Positions 2,043 to 19,168 are shown, counted from the stretch's first letter. The stretch: 32,000 bases of DNA from Candidatus Methylomirabilis limnetica (GCF_003044035.1 NZ_NVQC01000011.1:1-32000); one strand, 5' to 3'. The notes: a model not told the origin generated them from the letters alone. Translations and numbers: made by a program.

Positions 2043-2272
2043 GTAACTACTCAGGTGTTTAGACTGAAGGCTGAAGGCTCTGAATTATCTCGCAAGACAC
2101 GAATCAAGCCGTTCAAGACCTTCTCGGTTTATATGACTTTTGGTTCAACCAGATAAACCAACATTGCTACTTCATCAGCCAACTCAAATGCCCGAAGTTT
2201 TGTGTGATCAGAACACGATTACCCCTAACAGCCTTCAGCCTTCAGCCTTCAGTCTATCTACCTTGTAGTTAC
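2043..2272 (-). mobile_element. MITE copy 1 (230 bp) of the GTAAC...CTGAAGG-heptamer TIR family
   Basis: Left end: GTAACTACTCAGGTGTTTAGACTGAAGGCTGAAGGCT. Right end is its inverted complement with three AGCCTTC heptamers, ending CCTTGTAGTTAC. Internal core is shared with the other copies (CGAATCAAGCCGTTCAAGACCTTCTCGG). No ORF. Flanks are only imperfectly duplicated (CATTTG vs CATTTCAG). Confidence 0.75.
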
Positions 2273-2276
2273 CATT

Positions 2277-2849
2277 TCAGTACGAAAGGTAGAGAAGCGG
2301 GAAGAGGAAGATCCAGACGATGTCAACAAAGTGCCAGTACAGCCCCGCAATCTCGATGCGATAGCCGGTGCTCAACCCCCTCCCTGCCGCAAGAAACAGG
2401 ATGAAGTTCACAATAGCCCCGGCAATGACGTGTAGCATGTGCAGTCCCGTCAGCGCGTAGTAGAAGGACCAGAAGGAACCGCTCCACGGTACGGCGCCCT
2501 CCATGATGTGGGAGGTGTACTCATAGGATTTAATTCCGAGGAACGTCAGCCCGAGCAGGGTGGTAAGCAGCAGAAACCTTTGCGCCCCACGCTGATCCGC
2601 CTTTTGGTAGGCGTCAAAGGCCATCGCCATGGTCATGCTGCTGGTAAGCAGGACAAAGGTGTTGATCGTCGCCAGGGAGGTGCTTAGATGGGCGGCTTCT
2701 GCCGACCATCCCGGGCTGGCCGCCCGAGCCAGGATATAACTGCCTACGGCGGTTCCAAAAATCATCACCTCAGAGGCGATCACGAACCAGATGGCGATCT
2801 TGCCTCGAAGCGCGGGGGTGAACTGTTCGGATACGACCGCCATACGCAT
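2277..2849 (-). CDS. ctaE: Cytochrome c oxidase subunit III
   Basis: 190-aa polytopic ORF with the subunit III motifs FWSFYYALTGLHMLHVIAG and YWHFVDIVWIFLFPLLY. Its start overlaps the subunit I stop (TAATG). Confidence 0.85.
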   Translation of the reverse strand: MRMAVVSEQFTPALRGKIAIWFVIASEVMIFGTAVGSYILARAASPGWSAEAAHLSTSLATINTFVLLTSSMTMAMAFDAYQKADQRGAQRFLLLTTLLGLTFLGIKSYEYTSHIMEGAVPWSGSFWSFYYALTGLHMLHVIAGAIVNFILFLAAGRGLSTGYRIEIAGLYWHFVDIVWIFLFPLLYLSY

Positions 2850-4585
2850 TATCGCCCGTCCTGGGCAGCTCCCGACACCGGGGCACGATCCTGCGGAAGA
2901 TAATCTTCACGAATGCCGGGAGGGCTGTACTCATACGGGCCGCGGTAAACGGTTGGGGTCGCTTCTCCCCAGTTGTCATGAGGCGGCGGAGAGAGGGCTG
3001 TCCACTCGAGTGTTGCTGCCTCCCAGGGGTTGCGCTCCGCCTTTCTGCCGGCCACGATACTCCAGGCAAAGTTGATCAGGAATGGAATCTGGGCGATGAT
3101 GAGCCCAATCGCACTTATCGTAATCTGGATGTTAAGCGGTTGAACCGCTTTCAGGAACTCGTACTGGAGCGGGTTGGCGATACGACGCGGCATCCCGGCG
3201 AGGCCGACGGCATGCATCGGGAAGAAGGTGAGATTAAAGAACAGGAAGGTGAGCAGAAAGTGTAGTTTTCCCATGGGTTCATTCATCATCCGACCGAACA
3301 TCTTTGGAAACCAGAAGTAGAGGCCGGTAAAACCGCCAAATATGACGACGCTCAACAGGGTGTAGTGGAAGTGGGCCACGACGAAGTGGGTACCGTGAAT
3401 CTGGATGTTGGCCGGCGCCGAGCCGTTTACGATGCCGGTGAGTCCTCCGAGAATGAACATGGCGATAAAGCCCAAGGCCCAGAGCATCGGGGGCGCAAGG
3501 CGGATCGAGCCTTTCCATAGGGTAAAAATCATCGAGAACAAAATGAGCGCAAGTGGTACAGAGATCAGGATGGTGGCAATACTAAACGGCATGACGAGCC
3601 GGGGATCCATGCCGCTGATGAACATGTGATGCGCCCAGACGATAAAGCTGAGGACCCCCGTGATGAGGGTCGAGTAGATAATCCACCGATAGCCAAAGAT
3701 TGGTTTCCTCGAGAAGACAGCCAGGACCTCTATCACCGCCCCAAGCCCTGGCAACAGGATGACGTAGACCTCAGGATGGCCGAAGAACCAGAAGAGATGC
3801 TCCCAGAGCAGGGGGTCGCCACCCCCTTCGGGTACAAAGAAGCTGGTTCCCAGGAGCCGATCCATCAAGAGCATTACGGCTGCCGCGATCAGCGGTCCCA
3901 CAGAGAGCAAGAAAATGACGGAAGCGGTGAGTAGCTGCCAAATAATGATCGGAAGACGGAAAAAGGTCATCCCCGGTGCCCGCATAGTGATCGCGGTGGT
4001 GAGAAAATTGACGCCGCCGATTAGGAAAGAGCTGAACTCAAGGGCGTGAGCGATAAGCCAGAGGTTTATCCCCCAGTTCACACCGGTATATTCTGCCCTT
4101 GCGCTCAGCGGCGCATAGCCGGTCCAACCGGCGGAGGCCCCACCAGCGGGAACGAAGAATGATGTTAAGATCAGAAGAGCAGAGACCGCGAGGATCCAAA
4201 AGGAGAGCATGTTGAGCCGCGGGAAGGCCATATCCCTGGCCCCGATCATAAGCGGGATCAGAAAGTTTCCAAATGCCCCCAGCAAGATCGGCATTGCCAC
4301 AAAGAACACCATGATCGTGCCGTGATTGGTGACGAGAGCGTTGTACGTCTCCGGCCCCACAAAGCCGAATCCAGGGATTGACGTGTCGGGAAAGGCAAGC
4401 TGCCATCGCATCACATAGGCCAGGTAGCCCCCCACAAAGGCCATAAAGAGGCCGAGGGAGAGATACTGCTTGGCGATCGTTTTGTGATCGGTTGTGAAGA
4501 TATACGTACGCCAAAAGCCGAGCTCCCCATGTGCGGCGTGGATAACGGCCGAGGGAATGGGGGCTACTCCTGGGGGATGGCTCAT
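2849..4585 (-). CDS. ctaD: Cytochrome c oxidase subunit I (heme-copper oxidase, A-type)
   Basis: 578-aa ORF with WFFGHPEVYVILLPGLG (CuB His-Tyr region), VWAHHMF and HFHYTLL motifs. Confidence 0.95.
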   Translation of the reverse strand: MSHPPGVAPIPSAVIHAAHGELGFWRTYIFTTDHKTIAKQYLSLGLFMAFVGGYLAYVMRWQLAFPDTSIPGFGFVGPETYNALVTNHGTIMVFFVAMPILLGAFGNFLIPLMIGARDMAFPRLNMLSFWILAVSALLILTSFFVPAGGASAGWTGYAPLSARAEYTGVNWGINLWLIAHALEFSSFLIGGVNFLTTAITMRAPGMTFFRLPIIIWQLLTASVIFLLSVGPLIAAAVMLLMDRLLGTSFFVPEGGGDPLLWEHLFWFFGHPEVYVILLPGLGAVIEVLAVFSRKPIFGYRWIIYSTLITGVLSFIVWAHHMFISGMDPRLVMPFSIATILISVPLALILFSMIFTLWKGSIRLAPPMLWALGFIAMFILGGLTGIVNGSAPANIQIHGTHFVVAHFHYTLLSVVIFGGFTGLYFWFPKMFGRMMNEPMGKLHFLLTFLFFNLTFFPMHAVGLAGMPRRIANPLQYEFLKAVQPLNIQITISAIGLIIAQIPFLINFAWSIVAGRKAERNPWEAATLEWTALSPPPHDNWGEATPTVYRGPYEYSPPGIREDYLPQDRAPVSGAAQDGR

Positions 4586-4592
4586 GGTTGGT

Positions 4593-5306
4593 CTATTTCC
4601 TTGAGAGAGCTTTGCGTGGCAGTGCTTCTGCCATTACGGAAGGCCACTGTTCTTTCACCCACTTGTCGTATTCCTCAGCAGTGTGGACGGTCAAATGTCC
4701 GATCATCCCGGAGTGACCGAATCCGCAGAGTTCTGCGCAGGGGATCTCGAACACGCCGGTCTTGGTGGCCTGGAACCAGGCGGGAAACTCACGTCCTGGT
4801 ACAGCGTTCTGCTGTAGTCGCAGGTTGGGTAGGAACAGACTGTGAATGACATCCTTTGACTTGAGGGTGATACCGACGACCTTGTTCACTGCAACGTGCA
4901 GCTCATTGTCCATCTGAAGATCATCCGCCGTCCCGAACTGGCCATCCGGCCCTGGATAGAGGATCTCCCAGTTAAACTGCTTTCCAGTCACCTGCACCTG
5001 AAGCTCGCTTGGCGGCACGTTAATCCTGGCCTTTGCCCATGCATCGCCTGATCGAAAATCGAGCCACAAATCGAGCACGAGGACGAGCGCGGTCGGGATA
5101 AGAATCCACGCAACCTGCGAAAACTTCTCGCCCGTGATGTAGGTGGCACGCCGTCCCTCGCGCTGGCGGAAGAGTAGAACGAAGCCGAGCATGGCCCCAA
5201 TGGTCACAATGAACCATGCCAGCGTGATGTAATAGATCAGCCAGAAGAGAGAGTCAATCTCTCCCCCATAGGTTGAGATATTCTCAGGAAGCCAGCTCAG
5301 GAACAT
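4593..5306 (-). CDS. ctaC: Cytochrome c oxidase subunit II (CuA subunit)
   Basis: 237-aa ORF with two N-terminal TM helices and the CuA site CAELCGFGHSGM. It ends 7 nt upstream of subunit I. Confidence 0.9.
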   Translation of the reverse strand: MFLSWLPENISTYGGEIDSLFWLIYYITLAWFIVTIGAMLGFVLLFRQREGRRATYITGEKFSQVAWILIPTALVLVLDLWLDFRSGDAWAKARINVPPSELQVQVTGKQFNWEILYPGPDGQFGTADDLQMDNELHVAVNKVVGITLKSKDVIHSLFLPNLRLQQNAVPGREFPAWFQATKTGVFEIPCAELCGFGHSGMIGHLTVHTAEEYDKWVKEQWPSVMAEALPRKALSRK

Positions 5307-5373
5307 ACCTCATCCGCCCCAATCAGAGTCACTACGTTGTGATAGGCACACAGCGAAAGAAGAACCAAAAGCG

Positions 5374-5402
5374 TTTCTAACATTCACCTCAAATAGTGTC
5401 AA
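5374..5402 (-). promoter_or_regulatory. Candidate sigma70 promoter of the cox genes
   Basis: On the minus strand: TTGACA (5402-5397), a 17-nt spacer, then TAGAAA (5379-5374) with TGT immediately upstream (extended -10). It lies about 70 nt upstream of the coxII ATG. Confidence 0.3.
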
Positions 5403-5435
5403 CGTTAATTCTCGAGTCTATCCCGCAAACCCCCG

Positions 5436-5465
5436 TTCACCCTTCGACACGCTCAGGGCGAACGA
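5436..5465. repeat. REP-like hairpin or possible terminator after the DUF748 gene
   Basis: CGTTCACCC-N12-GGGCGAACG inverted repeat (8 of 9 bp) lies 30 nt past the stop at 5496. There is no T-tract. Confidence 0.3.
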
Positions 5466-5495
5466 TGAATGTAAAGAAGCGTTAGACGCACTACT

Positions 5496-8400
5496 CTAGC
5501 GGATTGTGAAATCAACGCGGCTATCCTTCAGCGTGTTGCGTTTCTCGGGCGCCAATGACTTGGGCTCAATGATGAACAGTCGCCCCTGCTCAACCTCGCC
5601 CGATCGTAGGATGGCATCCTTGACCTTCATGGCACGTTGAGAGGCCAGCAGCCGCAGGCCATCATCATTAACCTGGGTGTGTGTCAGCATCAGCTTTTCC
5701 ATTTCGGGGACCGGAAGGTCCTTCGCAAACCCCACGAGGTTGCGTGGCTTGGGAAACGTTTCCGCCTTGTAGGCTAGCCTCAGGAATGGCTCGTACTCCG
5801 CTGGTTCAAGGTTCAATTCAGCGACCGGGATCGACGCCTGTCCTTGTTTGAGGCGCTGATTGAATTTCTGGACCTTCAGCTTCCTCATGAACTCACGCTG
5901 CCGTAGCCCCTCTCTGTCCTTCTCAACATCAACATGGCCTTCGATCTCGAGCTTTAGCGAGGGCCGCTCATACAGCGCCTTAACCAGCATCTCGATCTTT
6001 TTCGCGTTTGTATCGGCCACAGTAGCGCTCCCTGGCTCGTACTCGAGATACCCCAGTTCCTCCCCACCCCCGATAAGCGCTCCGAGTAGGGCAAATGGGG
6101 CCGTCGCTGCCTTTGAGAGAAGGTTGACGAGGATCTGTAGGACAACCTTCCAGACTCTGAATTCAGGGTCATCAAGGCTGCCGGTCACCGGGAGATCCAG
6201 ACGGATCTCTCCATTTCTGTCCTTGAGGAGGGCGATGGCCAATCTGACAGGCAGATTTGTTGCAGTGGGGCTTTCTACCTTCTCTCCCAGGGTAAACTGA
6301 TCCAGGAACAGATTATTTTTGGAATCTAGCTTCCGGTTGGCAATCTGATAATTCAGATCGAAGGAGAGCTTGCCCTTCTCGACCGTGTAGCCAACGTATT
6401 TTCCCGAGTAGGGGGTCGCGGAGCTCAGGTCCATGTCCTTGAACCCGGCTTTCAGGTCTACAAAGAGGTCGTCGCGCAGCGGGTTGATCTTGCCCACGAT
6501 CTCGAGGGGGGCAAACTGGTTGACCTTACCCCTGAGCTCAACATCCGCGAGTGTGGCTTCACCGGACGACAGTCCGGTCACCCTTCCACCGATCTCTGTC
6601 AGGTCGACGGAATAGGCCGGCTTGAGTGATGCGTCTGAAAAGCTGATGTGTCCCCCCTGAAGCGTGACCGTCCGGATTTGAACATCAGTACCGGCCTTGC
6701 CGGATGTCTCGCTGGGGGTGGGCTGCGGGGCGGTCGGCGACGTATCTGGAGAAGTCGGTTTTTCCTCGACTGTCCCCTTTTCCATGATTTGTGCAAGATT
6801 GACCGAGCCGTCCGGATGAACGATCAGACGGGCGTAGAAGTCGGTCAGCGCAACCTTAGCGATATGGACGTACGTCGGATTATAGCCTACATCGAGGTCG
6901 CCGAACGCAAGGGATTGCCAGGTCAGAAAATCCTGTGCGTGAGCCTTATCAACCGATCCGAACTGCACTGCGGACAGATTGCCCTTGTAGGCAGCCTGCA
7001 GGCCGGATCCTTCCTGGTGGTTTAACGAGAGATTGCCGTCGGTTGATACGGTGCCTCTCGTGACGTGGATCTTGACCCGATCGGTGAAATAGGGTTGAAA
7101 CGGGCGGAGATCGATCGCCTTGAGGCTCACGGCCAATTGCGCGGACAGCGGGGCAATACCGACCGGGCCCTTGACCGTGGCCGTTCCCCCCTTATTCAGA
7201 CGGAAAGAGACGACGGTCGTACCCTGGCGATCTTTTCTGGTCGTAAGGTTATCGGCCCTCACGCTGATTTCCTGGGCGACGAGGTTGGCCGGCTCGGCAG
7301 GCGTATGATCTTCAGCATTCTTCTCAGCTTTTATTGAGATCGCCGTAGCCGTATCCGAAAAGGAGAGCATCCCCTTACTCAGTTGAAACGTATCGATGTC
7401 CACTACAGCAGAGGTGGCTGTAGTATCTTGAGCCTTGACATCGGTGCGCGTATCCGGATTCGCGGGAAAGAGGGTCTGAATGTTGGTTACCCCGGACGGA
7501 TCGCGCCTGATAAACAGTTCTGGTGATTCCAGCGTTACGGATGCCACATGAAACAGCCTGGCAAGAGGTTCCGTAGGCGCGAGCACGACGTCTAAAAGGG
7601 GAAGCGCCAGAAGCGGTCGATCCTGTGCGTCGCTGACGGCAAGCTGGCGCAAGGCGATGCGGCCTTCTACCGTCAGCGCGGGTTGTGGGTGTTGAATAAA
7701 TAACAGTTTCGCTTTGAGGGACATCTTCCCCGAACGGATCGTAAAGTTGGTCTTAACCGGCATATAGGTGAGATAGTAAGGAATATCGAGATCGGTGACA
7801 TCGATGTCGAAAGTGGTCTCCAGGGAGGAGGCAAACGGTTTTGTCTTGCCTTCAAGGATATACCGGCTGTCGTTGATCATTGCCGACACCCTGGGCGCAA
7901 CCGATGTATCGATATGGTATGGGTAATTCGAGAGAAACGGGAGGGCGATGTTCAGGTCCCTGACGGTATGATTGGTCTGCCTTGGCTGATCGAGGAGGTC
8001 CATGCTGCCGTCCACGATCCGAATATTATTGAATGAAAACTTGCGGGGGGCTGCTCCGCCACCCTGACCCGAGTCGCCCGCCCCCAGGAGATCGGAGAAG
8101 TTGTAGGAGCCGTCCTGATGACGGACGATCCGGATGTAGGGTCGATCTATGCGCACATCCTTTAGAATTACAGCCCAGCGGAGCGCGGAAACACTTTGGA
8201 GATTAATGAAGAGTTGATCAAACGATACGAACGTATCGGGCGCCTCGCGGTCCTTGACCATGACACCTCTGACGGTCAGTGAGAGCGTGAGCGGATTGAT
8301 CTTGATCTGTTGGATCGTCACCTCGCGGTGGAGCGTATCCGAGAGTGTTCGCATCAGAAACGATCGCATAAGTGGGGGGAGGCCAAGAAATGCGAAGAGG

Positions 8401-8498
8401 GCCACGGCCACAAAGACCGCGCCGGACCAGATGAGCAGTTTCCTCAGACGCTGCATGGGCATCAGTCGGCCCAACAACGATACCACCGAGGGTCTCAT
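5496..8498 (-). CDS. Large DUF748 / AsmA-like envelope protein (about 1000 aa, N-terminal TM anchor)
   Basis: Long ORF with an N-terminal TM helix (LLIWSGAVFVAVALFAFLGL), repeated beta-rich segments, RHQDGSYNFSDLL, and C-terminal LPVTGSLDDPEFRVWKVVLQILVNLLSKAATAPFALL. I place the start at ATG 8498, which overlaps the mscS stop (ATGA). The track's 42-aa upstream extension would overlap mscS. Confidence 0.7.
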   Translation of the reverse strand: MRPSVVSLLGRLMPMQRLRKLLIWSGAVFVAVALFAFLGLPPLMRSFLMRTLSDTLHREVTIQQIKINPLTLSLTVRGVMVKDREAPDTFVSFDQLFINLQSVSALRWAVILKDVRIDRPYIRIVRHQDGSYNFSDLLGAGDSGQGGGAAPRKFSFNNIRIVDGSMDLLDQPRQTNHTVRDLNIALPFLSNYPYHIDTSVAPRVSAMINDSRYILEGKTKPFASSLETTFDIDVTDLDIPYYLTYMPVKTNFTIRSGKMSLKAKLLFIQHPQPALTVEGRIALRQLAVSDAQDRPLLALPLLDVVLAPTEPLARLFHVASVTLESPELFIRRDPSGVTNIQTLFPANPDTRTDVKAQDTTATSAVVDIDTFQLSKGMLSFSDTATAISIKAEKNAEDHTPAEPANLVAQEISVRADNLTTRKDRQGTTVVSFRLNKGGTATVKGPVGIAPLSAQLAVSLKAIDLRPFQPYFTDRVKIHVTRGTVSTDGNLSLNHQEGSGLQAAYKGNLSAVQFGSVDKAHAQDFLTWQSLAFGDLDVGYNPTYVHIAKVALTDFYARLIVHPDGSVNLAQIMEKGTVEEKPTSPDTSPTAPQPTPSETSGKAGTDVQIRTVTLQGGHISFSDASLKPAYSVDLTEIGGRVTGLSSGEATLADVELRGKVNQFAPLEIVGKINPLRDDLFVDLKAGFKDMDLSSATPYSGKYVGYTVEKGKLSFDLNYQIANRKLDSKNNLFLDQFTLGEKVESPTATNLPVRLAIALLKDRNGEIRLDLPVTGSLDDPEFRVWKVVLQILVNLLSKAATAPFALLGALIGGGEELGYLEYEPGSATVADTNAKKIEMLVKALYERPSLKLEIEGHVDVEKDREGLRQREFMRKLKVQKFNQRLKQGQASIPVAELNLEPAEYEPFLRLAYKAETFPKPRNLVGFAKDLPVPEMEKLMLTHTQVNDDGLRLLASQRAMKVKDAILRSGEVEQGRLFIIEPKSLAPEKRNTLKDSRVDFTIR

Positions 8499-9301
8499 GA
8501 TCCGGACAGCAGACGCACCTCCCGCTGCGGAAGCGGGATGCCGATGCGACCGTCCTGAAATCGCTCCACAATTGTTTGGTAAAGCTCCGCCTGGGCAGTC
8601 TCGTAATCGTCGACCTTGACCCACGGACGGATCGAGATGACGATGGCCGAATCACCGAGCATACTGATACCCACTAAAGGGATCGGCTCTTTCAGTACGT
8701 ATGCGCTGCCCTCAAGCACTTGTCGCACGAGACCCATCGTATCGTTCAGGTCCGTACCGTACGCGACGCCTACCTTTAAGTTCAGTTGTCGCATGGTCCC
8801 ATAATTGTGCAGGATCTCTCCAACGATCTTGCGGTTCGGAATGACGATCTTCGACATGTCCGGATGAACGAGCGTCGTCGAGAAAAGATCGATCATATGG
8901 ACCTCACCCTGCTCCCCAGCCAGATCGATGTACTCGCCGACACGATACGGTTTTGTAAAGATGATAGTCAGGCCCGCAACGACGTTGCTCAGAACGCCCT
9001 GGAGCGCCAGTCCTATGCCGAGCCCGAACACGCCGATGCCGGCGAGAAAGGGTGACATCTGGATTCCCAGGTTGCCAAGCACCACCACGACCGTGAGGAG
9101 AACGACTACCACCCGGACAAGGCGGACGAGCAGTGTTCTGACTGGAGGCTCAATATGCTGACGCAAGGTCCATGTGCTAACGACGTTCCCGATCCATCGC
9201 GCTCCGAGTAGACCAGCCGCCAGGAGAATAATGGCCCCTAGAACCTGAAACCCGTAACGGATCAAGAGGTCGATCATGAGTGCTACCGGCGGCATCGTCA
9301 T
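8495..9301 (-). CDS. mscS: Small-conductance mechanosensitive channel (MscS family)
   Basis: 268-aa ORF with three TM helices, the pore helix GIGVFGLGIGLALQGVLSNVVAGLTIIF and the beta domain YRVGEYIDLAGEQGEV. GGAGG sits 8 nt upstream of the ATG. Confidence 0.85.
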   Translation of the reverse strand: MTMPPVALMIDLLIRYGFQVLGAIILLAAGLLGARWIGNVVSTWTLRQHIEPPVRTLLVRLVRVVVVLLTVVVVLGNLGIQMSPFLAGIGVFGLGIGLALQGVLSNVVAGLTIIFTKPYRVGEYIDLAGEQGEVHMIDLFSTTLVHPDMSKIVIPNRKIVGEILHNYGTMRQLNLKVGVAYGTDLNDTMGLVRQVLEGSAYVLKEPIPLVGISMLGDSAIVISIRPWVKVDDYETAQAELYQTIVERFQDGRIGIPLPQREVRLLSGS

Positions 9302-9359
9302 GGTGCGAACCTCCGCTGTGTGTCGTGGACCATCGATGTAATCCTCGTGTGCATTAGTA

Positions 9360-9509
9360 GTAACTGCTCAGGTAGATAGGCTGAAGGCTGAAGGTATTTA
9401 GGGACAAATAATGCGTGATCATGCAAAACTCCGGAAAAGGTCTTGAATAGCTTGATCCGAGCGTTACGTAATGATCGATCTACTTCAGCCTAAACGCCTG
9501 AGTAGTTAC
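9360..9509 (+). mobile_element. MITE copy 2 (150 bp)
   Basis: Ends are GTAACTGCTCAGGTAGATAGGCTGAAGGCTGAAGG and CTTCAGCCTAAACGCCTGAGTAGTTAC. A perfect 8-bp direct duplication CATTAGTA flanks it at 9352-9359 and 9510-9517. It carries the shared core CCGGAAAAGGTCTTGAATAGCTTGATCCGA. Confidence 0.85.
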
Positions 9510-9531
9510 CATTAGTAGACCTCTATCCCGG

Positions 9532-10302
9532 TCATCTGGAGAAGACCTCTTTCAGAAGATCGGTCACGCGGGCCGTCGGATCGGTCCTGATCTTGCGTTC
9601 CTCCTCCCCCAATACATGGAACAGGCCGTCGAGGCCCTTGGAGACGACATGCTGATCGATGTCAAGTGTTGCGCTCTTCACGAAGGGGATAGATTGATAC
9701 AGCGTAACCAGTTCCTTGTATTGGCGGACGGCACCGACCTCGTTCATCGCCTGTTCAACGACCGGCCGGAAGGCTGCAACTAGACGGTTCGAGGTCTTTG
9801 CCTTGAAATAGTCCGTAGCTGCTGTGTCGTTTCCAGTGAGGATTGTGCGGACATCCTCGAAGGTCATCGCTGAGAGGGCATCGGTAAAGATCTGTGTGGC
9901 GGCTGGGGCTGCTCGCTCAGCAGCCCGATTCATGCTCAACATAAACGCATCCATCTGCGGACCATACCCTACCGCCCGCATCGTCGTTTCCAGTGTCTGA
10001 AGTTGTTGCGGCATCAGGATCCTGATCGCCGGGTTGTCAAAGTACCCATTAGGCTTCCCCGTCAGTGCGACGGCGTTCTGCGTCCCGATCCGTAGCGCTT
10101 CTTTCAGGCCTGAGCCGATCCTCCCATCATCAAGCCCACCCTGCTGCCCCATTTCCAACCCTTTGAAGGGCTTACTGAAGGGCCACCACCCTGGAGCCGG
10201 GGCATTATGCTCCTGCGCGGCTGCCGGTTGTTGACCGGCAAGGATGAGCATCGGGAGGCACAGGATGAGCGTTGCACATCCCTTCCAGAATCTCTTTTGC
10301 AT
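9532..10302 (-). CDS. Secreted DUF4197-family protein
   Basis: Signal peptide, then [14 protein letters not shown]...[12 protein letters not shown]...[20 protein letters not shown], which is typical of DUF4197. I prefer the ATG at 10302 (GGAGG 6 nt upstream) over the track's TTG at 10308. Confidence 0.7.
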
Positions 10303-10372
10303 CGCCAACCTCCTGTACGCGAATTATTGCAGCGGCTCCCCGGCTGAACAGATTGAGACCATGACGCCCACT

Positions 10373-10807
10373 TCAGATCACAGAGGTGCAATACGCGCAG
10401 CGTGTGGCCTCCAGGTGGATACTGGACAAGCAATGGGGGCACGCCTTTGTGCTCGGTGCGACCGGCGCCGCTTCGGGCTTCCGTGTCATGCGGTTGATCT
10501 GCCTGATCAGGAGGAAGATGGCAAAGGCCACGATCAGAAAATCCAACACGGTGTTGAGAAACACCCCGTAATTGATGGTGGCTGCACCTGCAGCCTTGGC
10601 TGCGGCGAGCGTGGGGTGGGCAGTACCGGAGAGATCGATGAACAGGCTGGAGAAGTCGACCTTGCCGACCAACAGGCCGATGGGGGGCATGAGGATATCA
10701 TTGACAAATGAACTGATAATTTTGCCGAAGGCGGCGCCGATCAAGATCCCGATGGCCATATCGATGACGTTCCCGCGCATCGCGAACTCTTTAAACTCCC
10801 GAAGCAT
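10373..10807 (-). CDS. mscL: Large-conductance mechanosensitive channel MscL with a C-terminal Cys4 tail
   Basis: N-terminus is [31 protein letters not shown], followed by NDILMPPIG. The C-terminus is CPHC-x12-CAYC. GGAGG sits 5 nt upstream of the ATG. Confidence 0.9.
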
Positions 10808-11072
10808 CTACCCCTCCTCTTGCGCAATGGCAGATTACCACGCCTGTTCCGACCTTTACCCAGCGCAGGGACGGACGTGAATCCTGCCCCTGCTGCTACA
10901 GAGGATACCATAGTCTGCCGCTTGTCCGAAATAGCTTCCGACGGTGCCAAATCTATAAAGTGGAGCAGGGGGGCGCCTTATTCGGCGTTTCATTGAGAGG
11001 TGCGGGACAGGGTAAGGAAGCGGTTCGTGATGCAGGATGGCTGCCCGCGATTCGCAGCAACCTCGATCGGGT

Positions 11073-11817: not shown

Positions 11818-11845
11818 ATTCTAGCACCGCTACACGTGATAGCAA
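11818..11845 (-). promoter_or_regulatory. Sigma70 promoter (extended -10) for the small ORF / Mrr-like pair
   Basis: On the minus strand: TTGCTA (11845-11840), a 16-nt spacer, then TAGAAT (11823-11818) with TGC immediately upstream. Confidence 0.4.
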
Positions 11846-12128: not shown

Positions 12129-12519
12129 GTAACTTCTTAGGTAGATAGACTGAAGACTGAAGGTTGTTAGACTGGAGGAACGCGCACAGATGAGCCAGGC
12201 GTTTTCCAAATGCGACGCGACAATGAACTACCCCACAGCAAGCTGCGGGGTATCGTCTTCTGTTCTGGCCCGTCATTCCGTGCTTGACACGCCTGCCCCG
12301 TACTTGATACGGGGCCTGCCCCGTACTTGTGTGATACGGGGGAATCCAGTCGGGCCCTCTGGGTACCGGCTTCCGCCGGTATGACGAACTTGCGGCAACC
12401 CGCGGGGGTATCAACCCTCAATGGAATGATGGAGACCGAAAAGGTTTTGGGCGCCTTGATTCGATCCGCGCGCAACGACTAACAGCCTTCAGCCTTCAGC
12501 CTAATCACTTTGTAGTTAC
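12129..12519 (+). mobile_element. MITE copy 3 (391 bp, composite) occupying the nrdJ leader
   Basis: Ends are GTAACTTCTTAGGTAGATAGACTGAAGACTGAAGG and AGCCTTCAGCCTTCAGCCTAATCACTTTGTAGTTAC. Apart from a 191-bp insert, it is collinear with the reverse complement of copy 4. No TSD is recognisable. Confidence 0.8.
12229..12419. repeat. Nested palindrome-rich insertion inside MITE copy 3
   Basis: This stretch is absent from the otherwise collinear copy 4. It is flanked by AATGAA (12222-12227) and AATGGA (12420-12425). It contains hairpin TACCCCACAGC/GCTGCGGGGTA, two tandem CCCCGTA-loop-TACGGGG hairpins (12296-12342), and the inverted pair CGTCATTCCG...CGGTATGACG. Confidence 0.55.
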
Positions 12520-12559
12520 GTCCGAGTTGTCACAATCATCCCAGGTAGAGGAGGACACA

Positions 12560-15500
12560 ATGTTTGGCAAGGCGAGCGAGTCAACGTTCCACGGGATTGA
12601 ACAGGGGGCAGAGATGACCCAGGCGGCTGGATCGCGACCGGCGAAGACCGGACAGTGGAGTGAGTCGGCCCTCCGCGTTCTCAAAGAGCGTTACCTGATG
12701 AAGGATGAGACCGGTGTCAGAGAGACGCCCGAGGAGATGTGTTGGCGGGTGGCGGTGGCCATCGCCAAGGCCGAAGAACAGTGGGGCAGAAGTGAGACGG
12801 AAGCTCGCCAAGTCGCGGAATCGTTTTACGATGTGATGGTTGAAGGGAAGTTCCTTCCTAACTCTCCCACGATGATGAATGCCGGCAAAGAGAACGGGAT
12901 GCAGTATTCGGCCTGTTTTGTGCTTCCCGTTGAAGACTCCATGGAAGGGATCTTCGAGGCGGTCAAAAGAGCGGCGATTATCCACCAGTCGGGTGGCGGG
13001 ACCGGCTTTGCCTTCTCGCGCCTCAGGCCGAAGGATACGCTGGTGAAGTCAACCGGCGGTAAGGCGAGCGGTCCCATCAGCTTCCTTCGGGTCTTTAATG
13101 CCGCCACCGAGGCAGTCAAGCAGGGTGGGGCCAGGCGTGGCGCCAACATGGGTATTCTCAAGGTGGATCACCCTGACATCCTGGAGTTCATCGACTGTAA
13201 GCTGGACGGCGGGATCACTAACTTCAATATCTCCGTGGCGGCCACCGAAACGTTCATGGATGCCCTGGCGAAGGACGAGGCCTACGAGTTGGTCGATCCT
13301 CACACCAAGTCCGTCACTGGCCACCTTCAGGCTCGCGAGGTCTTTCAACGGATCGTCCAGGCGGCCTGGCGGACCGGAGATCCAGGGATGGTCTTCATCG
13401 ATCGCATTAACACAAGTTCGGCCAATCCGGTCCAGCAGGATGAGCTGATCGAGGCCACGAACCCATGTGTGCCAGGGGATACGTGGATTATGACCGACGT
13501 CGGTCCACGCCAGGTCCTGGATCTGCTTGGCAAGCCGTTCCGCGCTATCGTGGATGGAGCCGGACATGCGAGCGGACTGGATGGTTTTTTCAAAACTGGT
13601 ACACGTCCCTTGGTATGCCTTCGGACGGTTGAGGGCTATTCGTTGCGCCTTACGGCAGACCATCAGGTCCGGAGGGTTACTAGGCTGACCCGCTATGTGT
13701 CTGAGGCGGAATGGACCGAAGCTGGGCAACTCCGCCCTGGTGATCGAGTACTCCTCCATGATCACCGGGAGCTGACGGGATGGGCGGGGGCTTATACGGA
13801 AGGCGAGGGGTATCTCGTTGGTCTGTTAGTTGGGGACGGTACTCTGAAGAACGACAAGGCGGTTCTCTCGGTGTGGTGTCCAGAAGTCGTCGCCGTCGCA
13901 AATGGACCGTCCGAGATTGGTGAGTCAGGAGCCTCGGCCGTGATGCAGGCTGCATGGAATTATGCCCAAGCCCTTCCTCATCGGTCGGATTTCAAGGGGT
14001 GGCTGCCAGTTTCGGGTCGAACCGAGTTCCGCCTGTCGCTGGCCTATCTGAGGAATCTAGCGGGAGAACTGGGAATGGCGCCTGGCCGGAAGGATATTAC
14101 CCCTACACTGGAGCAAGCCTCTTCTGCATTCTATCGGGGATTCCTTCGAGGTCTGTTTGATGCCGATGGGTCCGTCCAGGGATCGCAGGAAAAGGGAGTC
14201 AGCGTCCGCTTGTCCCAAAGTGACCGAGAACGGTTGCTGGCCACCCAGCGCATGTTGTTGCGCCTGGGCATCGTTTCCACGCTGTATGAGGGCCGCCGTC
14301 CGTCACAGGTTCGCATGCTCCCCGACCAGCGAGGAGGCCTGCGAGGGTACGCCACGGCCGAACAGCACGAGCTTGTCATCTCCGGGGATAACCTCCTGCG
14401 CTTTGCCGAGCGCGTTGGCTTCTCCGACAGTAACAAGGCCCTCAGGCTACGAACGTTGTGCTCAGCTTACCGGCGCATGGTAAACCGAGAGCGATTTACG
14501 GTCCGAGTGGTTTCTGTTACCGACGCGGGAATGGAAGATGTCTACGACGCGCAGGTCCCTGGGGTTCACGCCTTCGATGCCAACGGCCTCTACGCCCATA
14601 ATTGCGGCGAGCAGCCGCTTGGTCCCAATGACGCGTGCAATCTGGGCTCGGTCAATCTAGCCAGATTTTACCTCCCCTCGATTCCGGTGGATGCCAGGGT
14701 GACGGAGCGAATCGATTGGGCTGGACTAGAGCAGGTGGTACGGACGGCAGTCCGCTTCCTGGACGACGTGATCGACGTGAATCCCTATCCGCTCCAGGAT
14801 ATTATCGAGGAGGTCCGAAGCAACCGGCGTATCGGCCTCGGCGTCATGGGCTGGGCCGACCTGCTGCTTGAGCTTGGCCTTCCATACGACAGCGCCGAGG
14901 CGGTCACGCTGGGTGATGAGATCATGGGCTTCATTCAGCAAATTGGCCATGATGCCTCTGAGAAGCTGGCAGAGGCGAGAGGGCCGTTTCCTCGCTGGTC
15001 ACGGAGCATTTACAAGGGCAAGAAACCCCTTCGTAACTCCACCGTCACAACCATTGCGCCTACCGGAACGATCAGCATCATCGTCGGTTGCTCTTCCGGG
15101 ATCGAACCGATCTTCGCTGTCGCGTTCAGCCACATTGTAGGAGACCGGCACCTGACCTTCGTGAACCCGATCTTCGAGGATGTTGCGAAGCGACGGGGCT
15201 TCTACAGCGAAGAGCTGATGCGGCGGGTGGCCGAACAGGGGACCGTTCGCGGTCTTGAAGGCGTACCGGAGGACGTTCAGCGAGTCTTCGTGACGGCCCA
15301 CGAGATCGATCCCGCCTGGCACGTCAAGATGCAATCAGCCTTTCAGAAGCAGACCGATAATGGCGTCTCCAAGACGATCAACCTGTCCCACTCAGCGACG
15401 CCGGATGAGATCGCCAAGGCCTATATGATGGCGTATGAGCTTGGATGTCTCGGGATTACGGTCTTCCGCGATGGCTGTAAGGGCACCCAGGTCTTGCATC

Positions 15501-16126
15501 TCGGCACCGGCGCCAAGCCTGCCCTGAGCGATGCTGAAGGGCCTGCCTTGGGCGATATTGAAGTAGTGGCACAGCGGGAGGCGCCGCAAGCGATCCCAAT
15601 CGTTATGAAGATGGGCCGAGAGGCAGCGCTCAAGGTCAAGCCGAGACCGCGGACCGTGAAGGGCGTCACGTACAGGGCGGAGACGCCGCTCGGAACCGCC
15701 TTCGTCACCGTCAACCAGAACGGCGAAGGTGAGCCGTTTGAGGTCTTCGCCAGCGTCGGGAAGGCCGGGAGCGATACCTCTGCGGTGTCCGAGGCAATCG
15801 GCCGACTTATCTCTATGATCCTCAGGCTGCCGTCACCGATGTCTCCCAGGGAGCGGGTCGAGCAGATCGTGAGCCAACTCTCCGGCATCGGCGGCGGTCG
15901 GCCGATGGGCTTCGGTAAGGGTCGGGTTCGGTCGTTACCGGATGCCATCGCCCAGGTCCTGTCCGAGCATATCGGTCTGACCGAGCCCGGTGTTCAAGAG
16001 ATGCGGGCGGCTCTTGGCAAGGCGACCCAGAAAGTAGGCGACATGTGCCCTGACTGTGGCTCGGCAACCCTCGTCTACGAAGAAGGTTGCCAGAAGTGCT
16101 ACTCTTGCGGGTTTAGCGAGTGCTAG
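12560..16126 (+). CDS. nrdJ: Class II (adenosylcobalamin-dependent) ribonucleotide reductase NrdJ, interrupted by an intein
   Basis: Motifs seen: LPNSPTMMNAG, ACFVLPVEDSM, GGGTGFAFSRLRP, ATNP/CGEQPL and TIAPTGTIS, plus a C-terminal Zn ribbon CPDCG...CQKCYSCG. ATG 12560 sits 4 nt after GAGGAGGA. The track's TTG at 12527 is in frame but less likely. Confidence 0.9.
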   Translation: MFGKASESTFHGIEQGAEMTQAAGSRPAKTGQWSESALRVLKERYLMKDETGVRETPEEMCWRVAVAIAKAEEQWGRSETEARQVAESFYDVMVEGKFLPNSPTMMNAGKENGMQYSACFVLPVEDSMEGIFEAVKRAAIIHQSGGGTGFAFSRLRPKDTLVKSTGGKASGPISFLRVFNAATEAVKQGGARRGANMGILKVDHPDILEFIDCKLDGGITNFNISVAATETFMDALAKDEAYELVDPHTKSVTGHLQAREVFQRIVQAAWRTGDPGMVFIDRINTSSANPVQQDELIEATNPCVPGDTWIMTDVGPRQVLDLLGKPFRAIVDGAGHASGLDGFFKTGTRPLVCLRTVEGYSLRLTADHQVRRVTRLTRYVSEAEWTEAGQLRPGDRVLLHDHRELTGWAGAYTEGEGYLVGLLVGDGTLKNDKAVLSVWCPEVVAVANGPSEIGESGASAVMQAAWNYAQALPHRSDFKGWLPVSGRTEFRLSLAYLRNLAGELGMAPGRKDITPTLEQASSAFYRGFLRGLFDADGSVQGSQEKGVSVRLSQSDRERLLATQRMLLRLGIVSTLYEGRRPSQVRMLPDQRGGLRGYATAEQHELVISGDNLLRFAERVGFSDSNKALRLRTLCSAYRRMVNRERFTVRVVSVTDAGMEDVYDAQVPGVHAFDANGLYAHNCGEQPLGPNDACNLGSVNLARFYLPSIPVDARVTERIDWAGLEQVVRTAVRFLDDVIDVNPYPLQDIIEEVRSNRRIGLGVMGWADLLLELGLPYDSAEAVTLGDEIMGFIQQIGHDASEKLAEARGPFPRWSRSIYKGKKPLRNSTVTTIAPTGTISIIVGCSSGIEPIFAVAFSHIVGDRHLTFVNPIFEDVAKRRGFYSEELMRRVAEQGTVRGLEGVPEDVQRVFVTAHEIDPAWHVKMQSAFQKQTDNGVSKTINLSHSATPDEIAKAYMMAYELGCLGITVFRDGCKGTQVLHLGTGAKPALSDAEGPALGDIEVVAQREAPQAIPIVMKMGREAALKVKPRPRTVKGVTYRAETPLGTAFVTVNQNGEGEPFEVFASVGKAGSDTSAVSEAIGRLISMILRLPSPMSPRERVEQIVSQLSGIGGGRPMGFGKGRVRSLPDAIAQVLSEHIGLTEPGVQEMRAALGKATQKVGDMCPDCGSATLVYEEGCQKCYSCGFSEC
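13466..14602 (+). mobile_element. Intein (379 aa) with a LAGLIDADG homing endonuclease domain
   Basis: It starts CVPGDTW directly after ATNP, has block B LTADHQV, and ends LYAHN directly before CGEQPL. The two LAGLIDADG motifs are YLVGLLVGDGTL (about 13808-13846) and FLRGLFDADGSV (about 14140-14176). Confidence 0.85.
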
Positions 16127-16202
16127 ATCGCATGGCGGATATCCGCTCAATCTTACGTGATTCGTAAAAGTGGAGACTTGATGTCTCGCAGGAGGACGTT
16201 AG

Positions 16203-16757: not shown

Positions 16758-16902
16758 CCAAGGCCTTTCCTCATTTTATCACTCCCTTTCGGCGAAGAGG
16801 GACAGTGCGGTTCGCAAGTATCCACAATCATTCTTAGAACCAGGCGCTGTCTCTCTTGTAGCCAACGATTTCGTTATGAAAAAAGTTTGACTTTTTGTAC
16901 GA

Positions 16903-16969
16903 TTGTTGTTGACACAGGCAGAACAGTCGTTGTAAATATATCAACAACGATGAGGTGCACAGTTGTTGA
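16903..16969 (+). promoter_or_regulatory. AT-rich promoter/operator region of the wHTH-NTase-like gene
   Basis: TTGACA lies at 16909-16914, with TAAATA at 16933-16938 (18-nt spacer). GTTGTTGA occurs at 16905-16912 and 16962-16969, and inverted at 16941-16948. A perfect inverted repeat, TCGTTGT (16927-16933) and ACAACGA (16944-16950), brackets the -10. Confidence 0.35.
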
Positions 16970-17532
16970 TCCGGTTATTTTCATCAGAAACACGGGTGAG
17001 TCTTCTCACATTTCTTTTCACTAGGTTGGATAAGCGCTTTTATGTCAGAGAGCTGGCGCGACACCTTGGACGGGATATCTCCGGGGTCAAGCGGGAGCTG
17101 GACAATCTAGAGAGGGCTGGTTTGTTGGCTAGCGAAAAGGTCGGGAATCTTCGGTACTACCGGGTAAATAAGGCGTCGCCCATTTACACCGATATCAAGG
17201 GGATCGTCGCCAAGACCACCGGCATTCATGCGAGCCTCCGAGAAGGACTCCGAAAAATTAAAGGGATCCAGACGGCTATGGTTTATGGGGTAGAGCAGCA
17301 CGAGGCCGAAGAGGGCCTTGGCCCCATTCGGCTGATGGTTATTGGACGGGTTGATTTGAACGATCTTAACGATACCATCAGGGGGCTGGAGAGCCGGTTA
17401 AATCGCGAGATTAACTACCTGGTGTTCGATGAGGCAGAATATCAGCGGAGAAAGACGGAGGATGACCCGTTCCTCGTTGAAGTCCTCAAGGGCCGAAGGG
17501 TGATCCTGATCGGAACGGACGATGGCTTATGA
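16963..17532 (+). CDS. Winged-helix (ArsR-like) DNA-binding domain fused to a degenerate minimal nucleotidyltransferase-like domain
   Basis: The N-terminal wHTH reads TRVSLLTFLF...FYVRELARHLGRDISGVKRELDNLERAGLLASEKVGNLRYYRVNK. The C-terminal half aligns with MNT proteins, but has VYGV...GPIRLMVIG where GS...DxD is expected. TTG start sits 5 nt after GAGGTG. Confidence 0.6.
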   Translation: MLIRLFSSETRVSLLTFLFTRLDKRFYVRELARHLGRDISGVKRELDNLERAGLLASEKVGNLRYYRVNKASPIYTDIKGIVAKTTGIHASLREGLRKIKGIQTAMVYGVEQHEAEEGLGPIRLMVIGRVDLNDLNDTIRGLESRLNREINYLVFDEAEYQRRKTEDDPFLVEVLKGRRVILIGTDDGL

Positions 17533-17971
17533 GGAGCTTCGGGAGCGCGGCTTGGTTGAGGAGATCAGACCTGACTTCCGGCAGGTCTTGACATTGCTGA
17601 CAAGGGCTATGAAAGATCTGTCGACGGCCAAGGCCAACGTGAGCATCGACAAGGAATGGGCATATACCATCGCCTACCAGGGAATGCTGGGGGCCGCTAA
17701 GGCGTTGGTGGCCGCTGAAGGGTGGCGACCAAGGGGTCGTGACCAGGCCAGAACGGTTATCGTGTTAGTGGGGGAGCTGCTGGGTGAAGAGGGGCGACCT
17801 CTGGTCAATGTTTTCGACCGGATGCGTCGCAAACGGCAGGACTTTATGGAGGAACCCCAGACCCCGATCCCACGGTATGAGGTCGAGGGGGCGCTGAAAG
17901 ATGCACAGTCCCTCATTGAAAGGCTTGTGGATCTCGCCCGTGAGAAAAATCCGCAGTTAGCGTTCCTGTAG
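17522..17971 (+). CDS. HEPN-like four-helix protein without histidine
   Basis: 149-aa ORF overlapping the upstream gene by 11 nt. The HEPN-like pattern is AMKDLSTAKANV..EWAYTIAYQGMLGAAKALVAAEG...FDRMRRKRQDF. There is no His anywhere in the protein, so no Rx4-6H motif is possible. Confidence 0.5.
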   Translation: MAYEELRERGLVEEIRPDFRQVLTLLTRAMKDLSTAKANVSIDKEWAYTIAYQGMLGAAKALVAAEGWRPRGRDQARTVIVLVGELLGEEGRPLVNVFDRMRRKRQDFMEEPQTPIPRYEVEGALKDAQSLIERLVDLAREKNPQLAFL

Positions 17972-18018
17972 CGAAGCTGGGAATGGACCGATTGCGCTGA
18001 AGGGAGGTGAGAGACTGA

Positions 18019-18117
18019 ATGGCGGCGAAAAAGCCTGCACCAAAAGCAGCAGTAAAGAAAGCAGCACCGAAGAAAGCAGCACCAAAGACGGCAAAAAAGT
18101 CGGGGAGGGGTTGCTAG
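18019..18117 (+). CDS. Polycationic Ala/Lys/Pro-rich micropeptide 1 (32 aa); not in the ORF track
   Basis: Translates as MAAKKPAPKAAVKKAAPKKAAPKTAKKSGRGC. The ATG lies 8 nt after GGGAGGTGA (18002-18010) and 47 nt after the HEPN-like stop. Confidence 0.5.
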   Translation: MAAKKPAPKAAVKKAAPKKAAPKTAKKSGRGC

Positions 18118-18169
18118 CCCCGTTTGGCGGTGTGTGAGTCCCTAACCATGGAAGGGGGTGAGAAACTCA

Positions 18170-18241
18170 ATGGCAGCGAAGAAGAAGGCAGCACCAAAGG
18201 CAGCAAAGGCAGCACCAAAGAAGGCAGCTAAGAAGAAATAG
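18170..18241 (+). CDS. Polycationic Ala/Lys/Pro-rich micropeptide 2 (23 aa), paralogue of peptide 1; not in the ORF track
   Basis: Translates as MAAKKKAAPKAAKAAPKKAAKKK. The ATG lies 8 nt after GGGGGTGA (18154-18161). The leader GAAGGGRGGTGAGARACTNAATGGCRGCGAARAAG is conserved with peptide 1. Confidence 0.5.
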   Translation: MAAKKKAAPKAAKAAPKKAAKKK

Positions 18242-18344
18242 TAACGCTGCAAGGCCTTGGTGGCCAAAATCGATCCCGCAGAGCCGAAAAAGAAACGATT
18301 CGTTACTGGGCGGGCCGGGGAACGATCACCAGGGAAGAGTTGAT

Positions 18345-18415
18345 CGATTGCTGTAAAGGTCAGCAATCGTCGCCCACTGCTGGGGGGCTAATCCCCCCCC
18401 CAGCCGGCATTATTC
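18345..18415 (+). terminator. Two consecutive perfect hairpins; the second resembles an intrinsic terminator
   Basis: Hairpin 1 is CGATTGCTG-TAAAGGT-CAGCAATCG (18345-18369). Hairpin 2 is GCTGGGGGG-loop-CCCCCCAGC (18379-18404), followed by CGGCATTATTCTT. Confidence 0.4.
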
Positions 18416-18842
18416 TTACATCTTATCTTAATTTTTAGCTATCAGAGGTGAATGATCGAAACGAAAGCGTGTGAAGTTGCGACGGGGGAGTTAGAAATTG
18501 TGCATCAGGATACGTGAGAAAGGAATGGTTGATCCGTAAAGGATGCCGACGGTGCTTGCTGTTTTCTCTTACCCTTGTTGGTGACTCCCGCTATAGCATC
18601 TTTTATGTGAGGGGCTTCTTTAATTTCATCCGTCTATCTATGTAGCGGGTTCTCTCCTCGCTGGGGAGGCCAAGAATCTCCCTTCTGCGTGACAGGCCTT
18701 CTCAGTGCTCCCCTCCCCATTACGAATATCCTACGTTGGTGAATTCCTCTTTCTGACCGGAGATGTGCTATGGTTATTACATAGCCGTCTACACCGATTG
18801 CGTCACAAGTAGTACTGCTTGTCGCTTTAGGCATCCACTCAG

Positions 18843-19028
18843 GTAAATACCCAGGTGTTTAGGCTGTAGGCTGAAGGCTGTTAGTCGTTACGTATGGACC
18901 GAATCAAGGCGCCCAGAACCTTTTCGGCCTCCATCATGCATGTTCACGTCGCATTCAGAAAACGCCTGGCTCATCTGTGCGCGTTCCTATAGTCTAAAAG
19001 CCTACAGTCTATCTACCTGAGTAGTTAC
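18843..19028 (-). mobile_element. MITE copy 4 (186 bp)
   Basis: Ends are GTAAATACCCAGGTGTTTAGGCTGTAGGCTGAAGGCTGTTAG and AGCCTACAGTCTATCTACCTGAGTAGTTAC. A perfect 8-bp duplication CCACTCAG flanks it at 18835-18842 and 19029-19036. It is the reverse complement of the copy 3 backbone. Confidence 0.85.
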
Positions 19029-19168
19029 CCACTCAGAGTCTGATAAACGGTCTTACTGGTGCGATGGCGAGGTTCATCTTCTTGCTTGTCGGAATTATCT
19101 CCAAGCGAAGACAAGACCGTTTCACAGTTCTTTACATCATCTCCACTTTATGGTATAGGAAGGCAGGA

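Follow-up and report, generated by a model that had tools for sequence, protein, structure and literature searches.

What are the four short segments that begin and end so much alike within 32,000 nucleotides of the Candidatus Methylomirabilis limnetica genome (NZ_NVQC01000011.1:1-32000, hereafter the window, by which we mean this whole stretch)? A sequence-only reading had taken them for one family of transposon-like elements and had connected them to IS66. We conclude with high confidence that they are non-autonomous transposons, that is transposable elements of the miniature inverted-repeat kind (MITEs), that belong to the ISBst12 group within the IS66 family of insertion sequences (ISs), and that they are the remnants of a cassette of ~450 bp with a PF05635 gene. 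All four were found exactly where that reading had placed them. Copy 1 (2043-2272, 230 bp, minus strand by its gene remnant) lies 4 nt downstream of the cox3 stop codon. Copy 2 (9360-9509, 150 bp, plus strand) lies between the MscS and DUF4197 genes. Copy 3 (12129-12519, 391 bp, plus strand) is a copy-4-type element with a nested insertion; 7 nt separate its end from the earliest possible start codon (TTG, 12527) of a ribonucleotide reductase (RNR) gene, and 41 nt separate it from an ATG (12561). Copy 4 (18843-19028, 186 bp, minus strand) lies upstream of an ATG (19064), 35 nt away from it.

Common to the four are GTAAC termini, arrays of a CTGAAGG heptamer and an internal core, as had been proposed, and the heptamer indeed occurs in one to three tandem units per end in the window copies. 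The terminal motif reads GTAACTACTCAGGT(A/G)..., and all eight window ends begin with GTAA, as do the paired elements that we collected from 170 loci. With up to three mismatches, the terminal 14-mer GTAACTNCTCAGGT has 11 matches in the window versus 4.97 +/- 2.12 in shuffled sequences. Six matches remain at two mismatches or fewer, every one of them an end of the four elements, and the two ends outside these six each contain an indel. The CTGAAGG doublet occurs seven times (0.4 expected) and is confined to the four elements. Repeat analysis of the window also groups their ends into one repeat family, with copy 3 equal to copy 4 plus an insert. The left end of copy 1 consists of GTAACTACTCAGGTGTTTAG and two heptamers (2043-2078), its right end of three heptamers and CTATCTACCTTGTAGTTAC (2232-2272); copy 2 has a GTAGATAG-type end on the left and a GCGTTTAG-type end on the right, and copy 4 has GTAAATACCCAGGTGTTTAG on the left and CTATCTACCTGAGTAGTTAC on the right. 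The two subterminal versions, GTGTTTAG and GTAGATAG, had been described as alternatives, but they are end-specific and not interchangeable: in copies aligned by their core, one of the two ends is GTAACTACTCAGGTGTTTAG(GCTGAAG)n throughout and the opposite end is (CTTCAGC)nCTATCTACCTGAGTAGTTAC throughout. Because one version is always left and the other always right, the element is polar and the versions are not variants. The exact pairing of AGATAG with GTTTAG was present in 21 of the 68 paired elements introduced below.

The MITE-like nature of the segments is confirmed by 8-bp target duplications far above chance and by the absence of copies 1 and 3 from a relative of ~90% identity. Copy 2 is flanked by the perfect duplication CATTAGTA (9352-9359 and 9510-9517, 8/8) and copy 4 by CCACTCAG (18835-18842 and 19029-19036, 8/8), both of which had been recognized before. 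Also in agreement with the earlier reading, copy 1 has only a decayed duplication, CATTT (2037-2041 and 2273-2277), visible as a 5-bp overlap of two alignments to the empty site in contig L197 (retrieved loci carry L numbers), and copy 3 has none. For 68 paired elements of 34-438 bp (median 149), obtained by matching facing ends in 120 genome loci, 50 metagenome loci and the window, we tabulated the flanking 8-mers, a comparison with chance that the sequence-only reading had called for. They were identical at 8/8 positions in 27 elements and at 7/8 in another nine, compared with 0 of 136 comparisons reaching 7/8 when the flanks were shifted by 8 bp. The duplicated target sites are A+T-rich. 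In the relative (L197-L200), which lacks copy 1, the intact target reads ...ATAATACATTTCAGTACG... and the junction ...TACATTTCAGT...; at the site of copy 3, likewise missing, it has 28 unrelated bp. Empty orthologous sites in related strains, which had been suggested as a check, thus exist for copies 1 and 3. Strains of 98-99% identity contain copies 2, 3 and 4 (copy 2 in the 98%-identical L203, copy 4 in the 99%-identical L201), and among the relatives of 98-99% identity that were retrieved there was no empty site for copies 2 and 4, these copies being already present. Additionally, a contig of an independent short-read assembly (Logan, L182) stops inside copy 1, at window position 2236. In summary, the four copies are short, bounded by terminal inverted repeats, free of a transposase and multicopy, with perfect target duplications at copies 2 and 4 and insertion polymorphism of copies 1 and 3, as is typical for MITEs.

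Which transposase do such ends belong to? The link to IS66 is supported and can be narrowed to the ISBst12 group, of which complete single-ORF (open reading frame) elements have the same termini and the 8-bp duplication. In loci L129 and L130 a transposase gene of the IS66 family (PF03050) is present in decayed form and has its stop within CTATCTACCTGAGTAGTTAC, and the right end (IRR) of L130 is 20/20 identical to the MITE end. A search with the repaired transposase fragment furnished 7,983 proteins of ~485-493 aa (DUF6444 + zf-IS66 + DDE_Tnp_IS66), mostly on contigs of 1.5-2 kb. One of these loci, L163, is a complete IS of 1494 bp, whose left end (IRL), GTAACTACTCAGGTAGATAG, again agrees with the MITE end at 20/20 positions. 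L171 is an IS of 1550 bp with the ends GTAACTACTCAGGCACAC... and GTAACTACTCAGGCAGGT..., and L172-L181 are ISs of 1544 bp with the ends GTAACTGCTCAGGCATAG... and GTAACTACTCAGGCAGGT..., the flanks of which pair across contigs as the 8-bp duplications GAAATAAA, TTCTAGGA, TATAGATT and CATTTTTT. L183 has the same layout, and the ends of L171-L183, GTAACT(A/G)CTCAGGC, match the MITE end at 13/14 positions. These parent ISs (1494-1550 bp) possess one called gene of 478-487 aa and neither tnpA nor tnpB. The three transposases that we tested pass the NCBIfam model transpos_IS66 with 302-321 bits (cutoff 180), and the Pfam domain DDE_Tnp_IS66 is present. The flanks of L163 (1-40 and 1534-1571) are inverted repeats of each other (CTGTAGGGACATCCAACAGG...) without an 8-bp duplication, which indicates an insertion into a palindromic repeat.

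Annotated single-ORF IS66 family transposases with GTAAC/GTTAC...CAG ends were also detected on plasmids of Pseudanabaena, Acaryochloris, Bacillus thuringiensis and Chlorohelix, with the perfect 8-bp duplications CTTCATTC and GAATCATT at the Acaryochloris and Chlorohelix copies. ISDge4, which belongs to the ISBst12 group of IS66 elements and has one ORF, the ends GTGACTACTCAGCA and GTAACTGCTCAGCA, nearly identical to those of our elements, and an 8-bp repeat, transposes experimentally in Deinococcus geothermalis (PMC12898284). The ends shared with complete ISs, the annotated plasmid copies and ISDge4 together support the IS66 assignment, and specifically the ISBst12 group, of which the ISfinder list includes an IS from Candidatus Kuenenia. 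Duplications of 8 bp are produced by several IS families (ISfinder family descriptions), and none of the window copies has a transposase linked to it in cis, as would also be the case if a different family (IS1595, ISL3, IS6, IS256 or ISH6) had moved the elements and the GTAA start were a coincidence. We consider this barely conceivable, as 13-20 terminal bases are identical to those of complete ISs whose sole ORF is an IS66-family transposase, ISDge4 and annotated elements of the IS66 family from four other phyla show the same terminal motif, and no other transposase family is recurrent near the ends. Indeed, an all-against-all BLAST of 1,726 ORFs from the 120 genome loci gave only PAS/response-regulator, tetratricopeptide-repeat, ABC, type II secretion ATPase and EF-G proteins as recurrent neighbours, and no transposase. 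Two sets of candidates were discarded: a trio of 151, 82 and 510 aa beside a GTAAC end in L049, which resembles IS66 tnpA-tnpB-tnpC, is actually CheW/CheR, and the solo ends of L139, L157 and L101 face MoxR, sigma-54 activator and AsmA genes, not transposases.

What, then, did the elements carry? The internal core CCGRAAAGGTYYTGRRYRSCTTGATYCG codes for ...(T/A)EKVLNGLIR, which is the C-terminal end of a PF05635 protein, and the window elements are therefore decayed coding cassettes rather than primarily non-coding DNA. Of the earlier description as intergenic and non-coding, the first part holds and the second needs this correction. Copies 1 and 2 retain the start MRDH(T/A)KLR. In copy 1 codons 3-23 (2209 to 2147) and 95-116 (2155 to 2090) of the gene are preserved, in copy 2 ATGCGTGATCATGCAAAACTCCGG (MRDHAKLR) is joined to an ..EKVLNSLIR.. 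remnant, and copy 4 keeps the C-terminal remnant EAEKVLGALIRSIRND with its stop. In alignments with an intact ORF in L012, the window copies correspond to its N- and C-termini. In longer relatives the gene begins inside the GGTAGATAG end and the heptamers with ...TTTTAGGGGTAAGTC ATG CGT GAT CAC ACA AAA CTT CGG GCA TTT GAG..., and closes before the other end with ...ACC GAG AAG GTC TTG AAT GGC TTG ATT CGT GCC TTG CGA GAT AAT TTA TAG. The L012 ORF (2279-2635, 118 aa) matches PF05635 (23S_rRNA_IVP, E = 1.8e-33) and TIGR02436 (four helix bundle protein, E = 5.6e-34); it is the sole intact gene among the ~121 exact right-end matches listed. A protein search yielded 7,987 relatives of the cargo protein, and for the best 120 distinct 90%-clusters the identity to it is 85-93% and the length 117-149 aa (nearly all 117-119), mostly on contigs of 0.5-3 kb.

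Complete cassettes were found as well. In a Nitrospira metagenome-assembled genome (MAG; L194/L195) a 448-bp cassette reads GTAACTGCTCAGGTAGATAG-(GCTGAAG)2-ORF(119 aa)-(CTTCRGC)2-CTGAACACCTGAGTAGGTAC and is bordered on both sides by AGCTTGTG, a perfect duplication; the L194 ORF matches PDB entry 2GSC (E = 5.9e-24). L196 has the same layout with a 7/8 duplication. With their intact passenger gene, L012, L194/L195 and L196 are mobile insertion cassettes (MICs), which the four window copies, holding only remnants, are not. The family hence comprises MITEs and rarer intact MICs, both already known kinds of element. Pairwise ratios of nonsynonymous to synonymous substitution (dN/dS) among four intact cargo genes were 0.08-0.21, with dS up to 0.73, showing that the gene is maintained by selection. 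Three intact copies that we examined (L184:1501-1854, L194:1501-1860 and L196:1501-1860) lie between, and are co-oriented with, glycosyltransferase or lipopolysaccharide (LPS)-core genes, with Glyco_transf_9, Glyco_transf_4/Wzy_C and Glycos_transf_2 as neighbours. The cassette ends in L184 have decayed, and this copy is shared by 17 contigs in conserved form; both points suggest that it was domesticated. PADLOC returned no defence-system match for either the PF05635 protein or the transposase.

The strong purifying selection on the cargo gene, the at least 120 distinct clusters of close relatives and the heptamers, which flank the gene yet are missing from the parent ISs, are what one would see if the element were a self-interested intervening sequence that needs its own PF05635 protein for mobility or maintenance, for instance by heptamer binding or recruitment of a host enzyme, with the IS66 ends being secondary. 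A role in mobility has been proposed for the ORF of ribosomal intervening sequences by Ralph and McClelland, as cited in PMC4990558, and for Avd-type relatives binding to nucleic acid and to reverse transcriptase is described (PMC10053308). Gene-less derivatives have moved nonetheless: copies 2 and 4 and many others are flanked by perfect 8-bp duplications, showing that the PF05635 protein is dispensable in cis. Families that share these ends, with other internal repeats and no PF05635 sequence, also have 8-bp duplications, a helical bundle of 119 aa without a catalytic motif is implausible as a transposase, and IS66 chemistry fully accounts for the termini and the duplication length. We thus judge an element driven by its PF05635 protein to be unlikely and favour mobilisation by ISBst12-type transposases.

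A second observation on the interior concerns structure. The heptamers and ends form a stem of ~30 bp that closes the whole element and appears in every minimum-free-energy structure. RNA folding gave z = -6.2 for copy 1, -6.8 (plus strand) and -5.3 (minus strand) for copy 2 and -3.0 for copy 4, and in the fold of the intact cassette L194:1451-1898 (448 nt) the terminal stem comprises 10 + 18 bp (z = -5.8). By analogy with the intervening sequences of 23S rRNA, this stem, if transcribed, could be a substrate of RNase III. A consensus scan found no sigma-70-like promoter inside copies 3 and 4, and these copies would lie in 5' leaders if the RNR gene and downstream genes are transcribed from further upstream. 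Since the elements are located directly upstream of genes such as that of the class II RNR, and in relatives inside LPS/glycosyltransferase operons, they may affect transcript structure. The very stable hairpins, the intergenic positions, some of them just upstream of genes, and the existence of decayed copies that keep the heptamer hairpin after the GTAAC ends are gone would all fit structured RNA genes or regulatory hairpins, or palindromes like the repetitive extragenic palindromic (REP) sequences and REPINs that are spread by a RAYT-type enzyme. Spread of the REP/RAYT type does not, however, yield target duplications and empty sites. Moreover, the interior is a decayed protein gene and not a conserved RNA, its sequence and length vary (34-438 bp), and Rfam, named beforehand as a possible source of refutation, gave no match for the window at the gathering threshold and none for the full cassette at E <= 1, leaving the IS66 link in place. 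We therefore see very little probability in an RNA or REP origin; secondary exaptation of a transposed element as an RNA hairpin is compatible with the ISBst12 assignment.

How far does the family reach? That four copies in 32 kb imply an abundant genome-wide family was substantiated by a scan with the 25-nt right-end pattern AGGTAGATAGRCTGAAGRCTGAAGG, in which each species was represented by one genome; the exact pattern was present at no fewer than 120 loci, in many MAGs and phyla. A single Methylomirabilis MAG has at least 16 contigs with the pattern. The loci span at least seven phyla with near-identical ends and come, some of them on megabase contigs, from Desulfobacterota / Deltaproteobacteria, Nitrospirota, Methylomirabilis (NC10), Brocadiaceae / anammox bacteria, Verrucomicrobiota (Chthoniobacterales, Spartobacteria), Chloroflexota, Ignavibacteriota and others. 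Across the 68 pairs, each end has between 0 and 5 heptamer-like units. A metagenome scan for the 20-nt end without a CTG heptamer next to it furnished further MITE families with the same termini and other internal short tandem repeats. In place of the heptamer, sister families use GGAATC/GGTATC hexamers, GGTTCAC and CGCAAAG; 8-bp duplications are present in the GGAATC/GGTATC family. Loci of these sister families are L122-L170 (e.g. L124:2306-2440, L125, L126 and L148), L020, L120, L074 and L079:934-967, and an element of only 34 bp, consisting of two ends, has a 7/8 duplication. A blastn search of copy 2 against 72,556 plasmids gave no match, and the 20-nt end had 0 matches in viral contigs. 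Searching full texts of the literature for the strings of the ends and heptamers gave nothing but unrelated primers, and in the literature on IS66 with MITEs or MICs and on S23p/IVP we found no description of the CTGAAGG family; ISfinder was not compared.

Several of our data weigh against the ISBst12 assignment. The identity with the parent ISs is confined to the 13-20 terminal bases, and on the autonomous ISs whose ends were read we found neither a GTGTTTAG-type end nor the heptamers. There is no transposase within the window, and none was present in the 120 genome loci of 8 kb around MITE ends. Furthermore, copy 3 has no target duplication and copy 1 only 5 bp of one, and a pure "junk MITE" view does not account for purifying selection on the gene carried as cargo. 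A near-exception regarding the heptamers is the plasmid pMB01 of Acaryochloris sp. "Moss Beach" (L205), where the right end (~1800-1823) reads GTTACTGCCCAGGCTGAAGC with one GCTGAAG unit directly inside the terminus (IRR), within the C-terminal codons of the transposase. This unit is a possible seed of the heptamer arrays.

The history that best unites these data would start from a mobile insertion cassette of ~450 bp, in which an IS66-type end, GTAACTNCTCAGGTAGATAG, was followed by two GCTGAAG heptamers, a 119-aa PF05635 gene ("23S rRNA intervening-sequence" / four-helix-bundle, Avd-like), two inverted heptamers and the end CT(A/G)AACACCTGAGTAGTTAC. Internal deletions would then have removed most of the cargo gene and left the two ends, the heptamers and short N- and C-terminal coding remnants. 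Movement most likely took place in trans through a single-ORF IS66-family DDE transposase of ~485 aa, which would recognise the terminal ~14-20 bp and make an 8-bp staggered cut, giving rise to the 8-bp duplications. As the window contains no transposase, we only infer this mobilisation in trans for the host. The heptamer arrays may have a role of their own.

The insert in copy 3 is itself a second MITE-like element of ~203 bp (12224-12426, boundaries approximate, from alignment to uninterrupted relatives). It starts with a GC-rich hairpin, TACCCCACAGC/GCTGCGGGGTA, and is unrelated to the CTGAAGG family; the sole terminator-like match of the consensus scan lies in it (12229-12252, minus strand). 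Further copies are located at L110:~225-370 and L197:16047-16215. In L110 as well, the copy sits within a CTGAAGG element, at another position than in copy 3, and this hints at a target preference for the CTGAAGG family. Other repeats and strain differences were noted in the window. Direct repeats of GCAGCACCGAAGAAAGCAGC-type units occupy 18046-18243, ~600 bp upstream of copy 4. Two 49-nt direct repeats (23091-23139 and 23194-23242; 98% identical, 103 bp apart), each with AGGCGTG units, enclose inverted (T)TCACG units (23150-23175) and so make up a short-repeat hairpin without GTAAC ends, which is shared with the 99%-identical strain L201. A 5.5-kb block (5403-10944) with DUF748/AsmA-like, MscS, copy 2, DUF4197 and MscL is absent from L197, where the junction is clean and has no obvious flanking repeat; it represents either an insertion in the window or a deletion in L197. 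At window 10326-10350, a 98-99%-identical strain (L203:2551-2975) has ~425 extra bp encoding a DUF559 ORF (very-short-patch-repair-like endonuclease) that is not in the window. Finally, the class II RNR gene (12527-16126) contains a LAGLIDADG intein at 13470-14602 (Pfam LAGLIDADG_3, Intein_splicing), inserted between TNPC and GEQ, with Cys as the first residue, His-Asn at the end and Cys next after the insert. The RNR gene of the ~90%-identical L197 is uninterrupted (809 aa), showing that the intein is polymorphic between strains.

Compared with known systems, the window elements share the termini GTAAC(T)NCTCAG and the 8-bp duplication with the ISBst12 group (ISBst12, ISDge4, ISCku6, ISMma15). 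The autonomous relatives that we retrieved measure ~1.5 kb and have one ORF of ~485 aa with its stop codon inside the right end, whereas the window elements have 150-391 bp and no transposase, and only they contain heptamer arrays and remnants of an unrelated gene. They resemble MITEs and MICs such as the IS231-derived MIC231 of Bacillus cereus, in which the ends of a known IS surround nothing (MITE) or a passenger gene (MIC), in probable mobilisation in trans, target duplications, multiple copies and nested insertions. What sets the CTGAAGG family apart from such elements, and makes it unusual, is the PF05635 passenger under purifying selection, the spread over at least seven phyla with near-identical ends and the variable extension of the ends by tandem heptamers. 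A widespread repeat that breaks assemblies of Methylomirabilis, Nitrospira, anammox and sulfate-reducer genomes is thereby given a parent transposase family and a history, and the abundant "four helix bundle / 23S rRNA IVS" gene of unknown function is seen to travel as cargo of IS66-type ends, under purifying selection. With the Avd proteins of diversity-generating retroelements the cargo protein shares a homologous four-helix-bundle fold; the hits of the L012 ORF to bAvd (PF22296, E = 0.0039) and DivGenRetAVD (E = 2.3e-5) are weak, with scores that fall well short of the cut-offs for the Avd family. Gene calling gave no reverse transcriptase beside the three intact cassettes examined, where template and variable repeats were not searched for.

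The closest parallel in architecture is provided by the intervening sequences (IVSs) of 23S rRNA with an S23p ORF in Leptospira and Coxiella burnetii, which likewise have a small PF05635 ORF within a terminal-repeat stem. In these IVSs the stem of ~28 bp is cut by RNase III; their origin is debated and mobility has long been suspected (PMC4990558). The full-length relatives of our elements possess both the ORF and the terminal stem, and the window copies retain the stem only. Unlike the 23S rRNA IVSs, the window copies lie between protein genes, and rRNA signature motifs were absent from the 203 loci. One may speculate, with considerable doubt and by analogy, that in Leptospira, Coxiella and others the ORF-bearing IVSs of 23S rRNA represent PF05635 cassettes that were mobilised into rRNA helices by ISBst12-type transposases, that the heptamer-extended stem would let RNase III excise the element from any transcript, and that the protein would serve the element, e.g. 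by binding the repeats. If true, this would be a "polite" transposon, tolerated inside operons and even inside rRNA, and the 30-year-old puzzle of the origin and mobility of IVSs would gain a concrete transposase and mechanism. With these results two old questions become testable, namely the way in which ORF-bearing IVSs of rRNA move and the function of the PF05635 protein.

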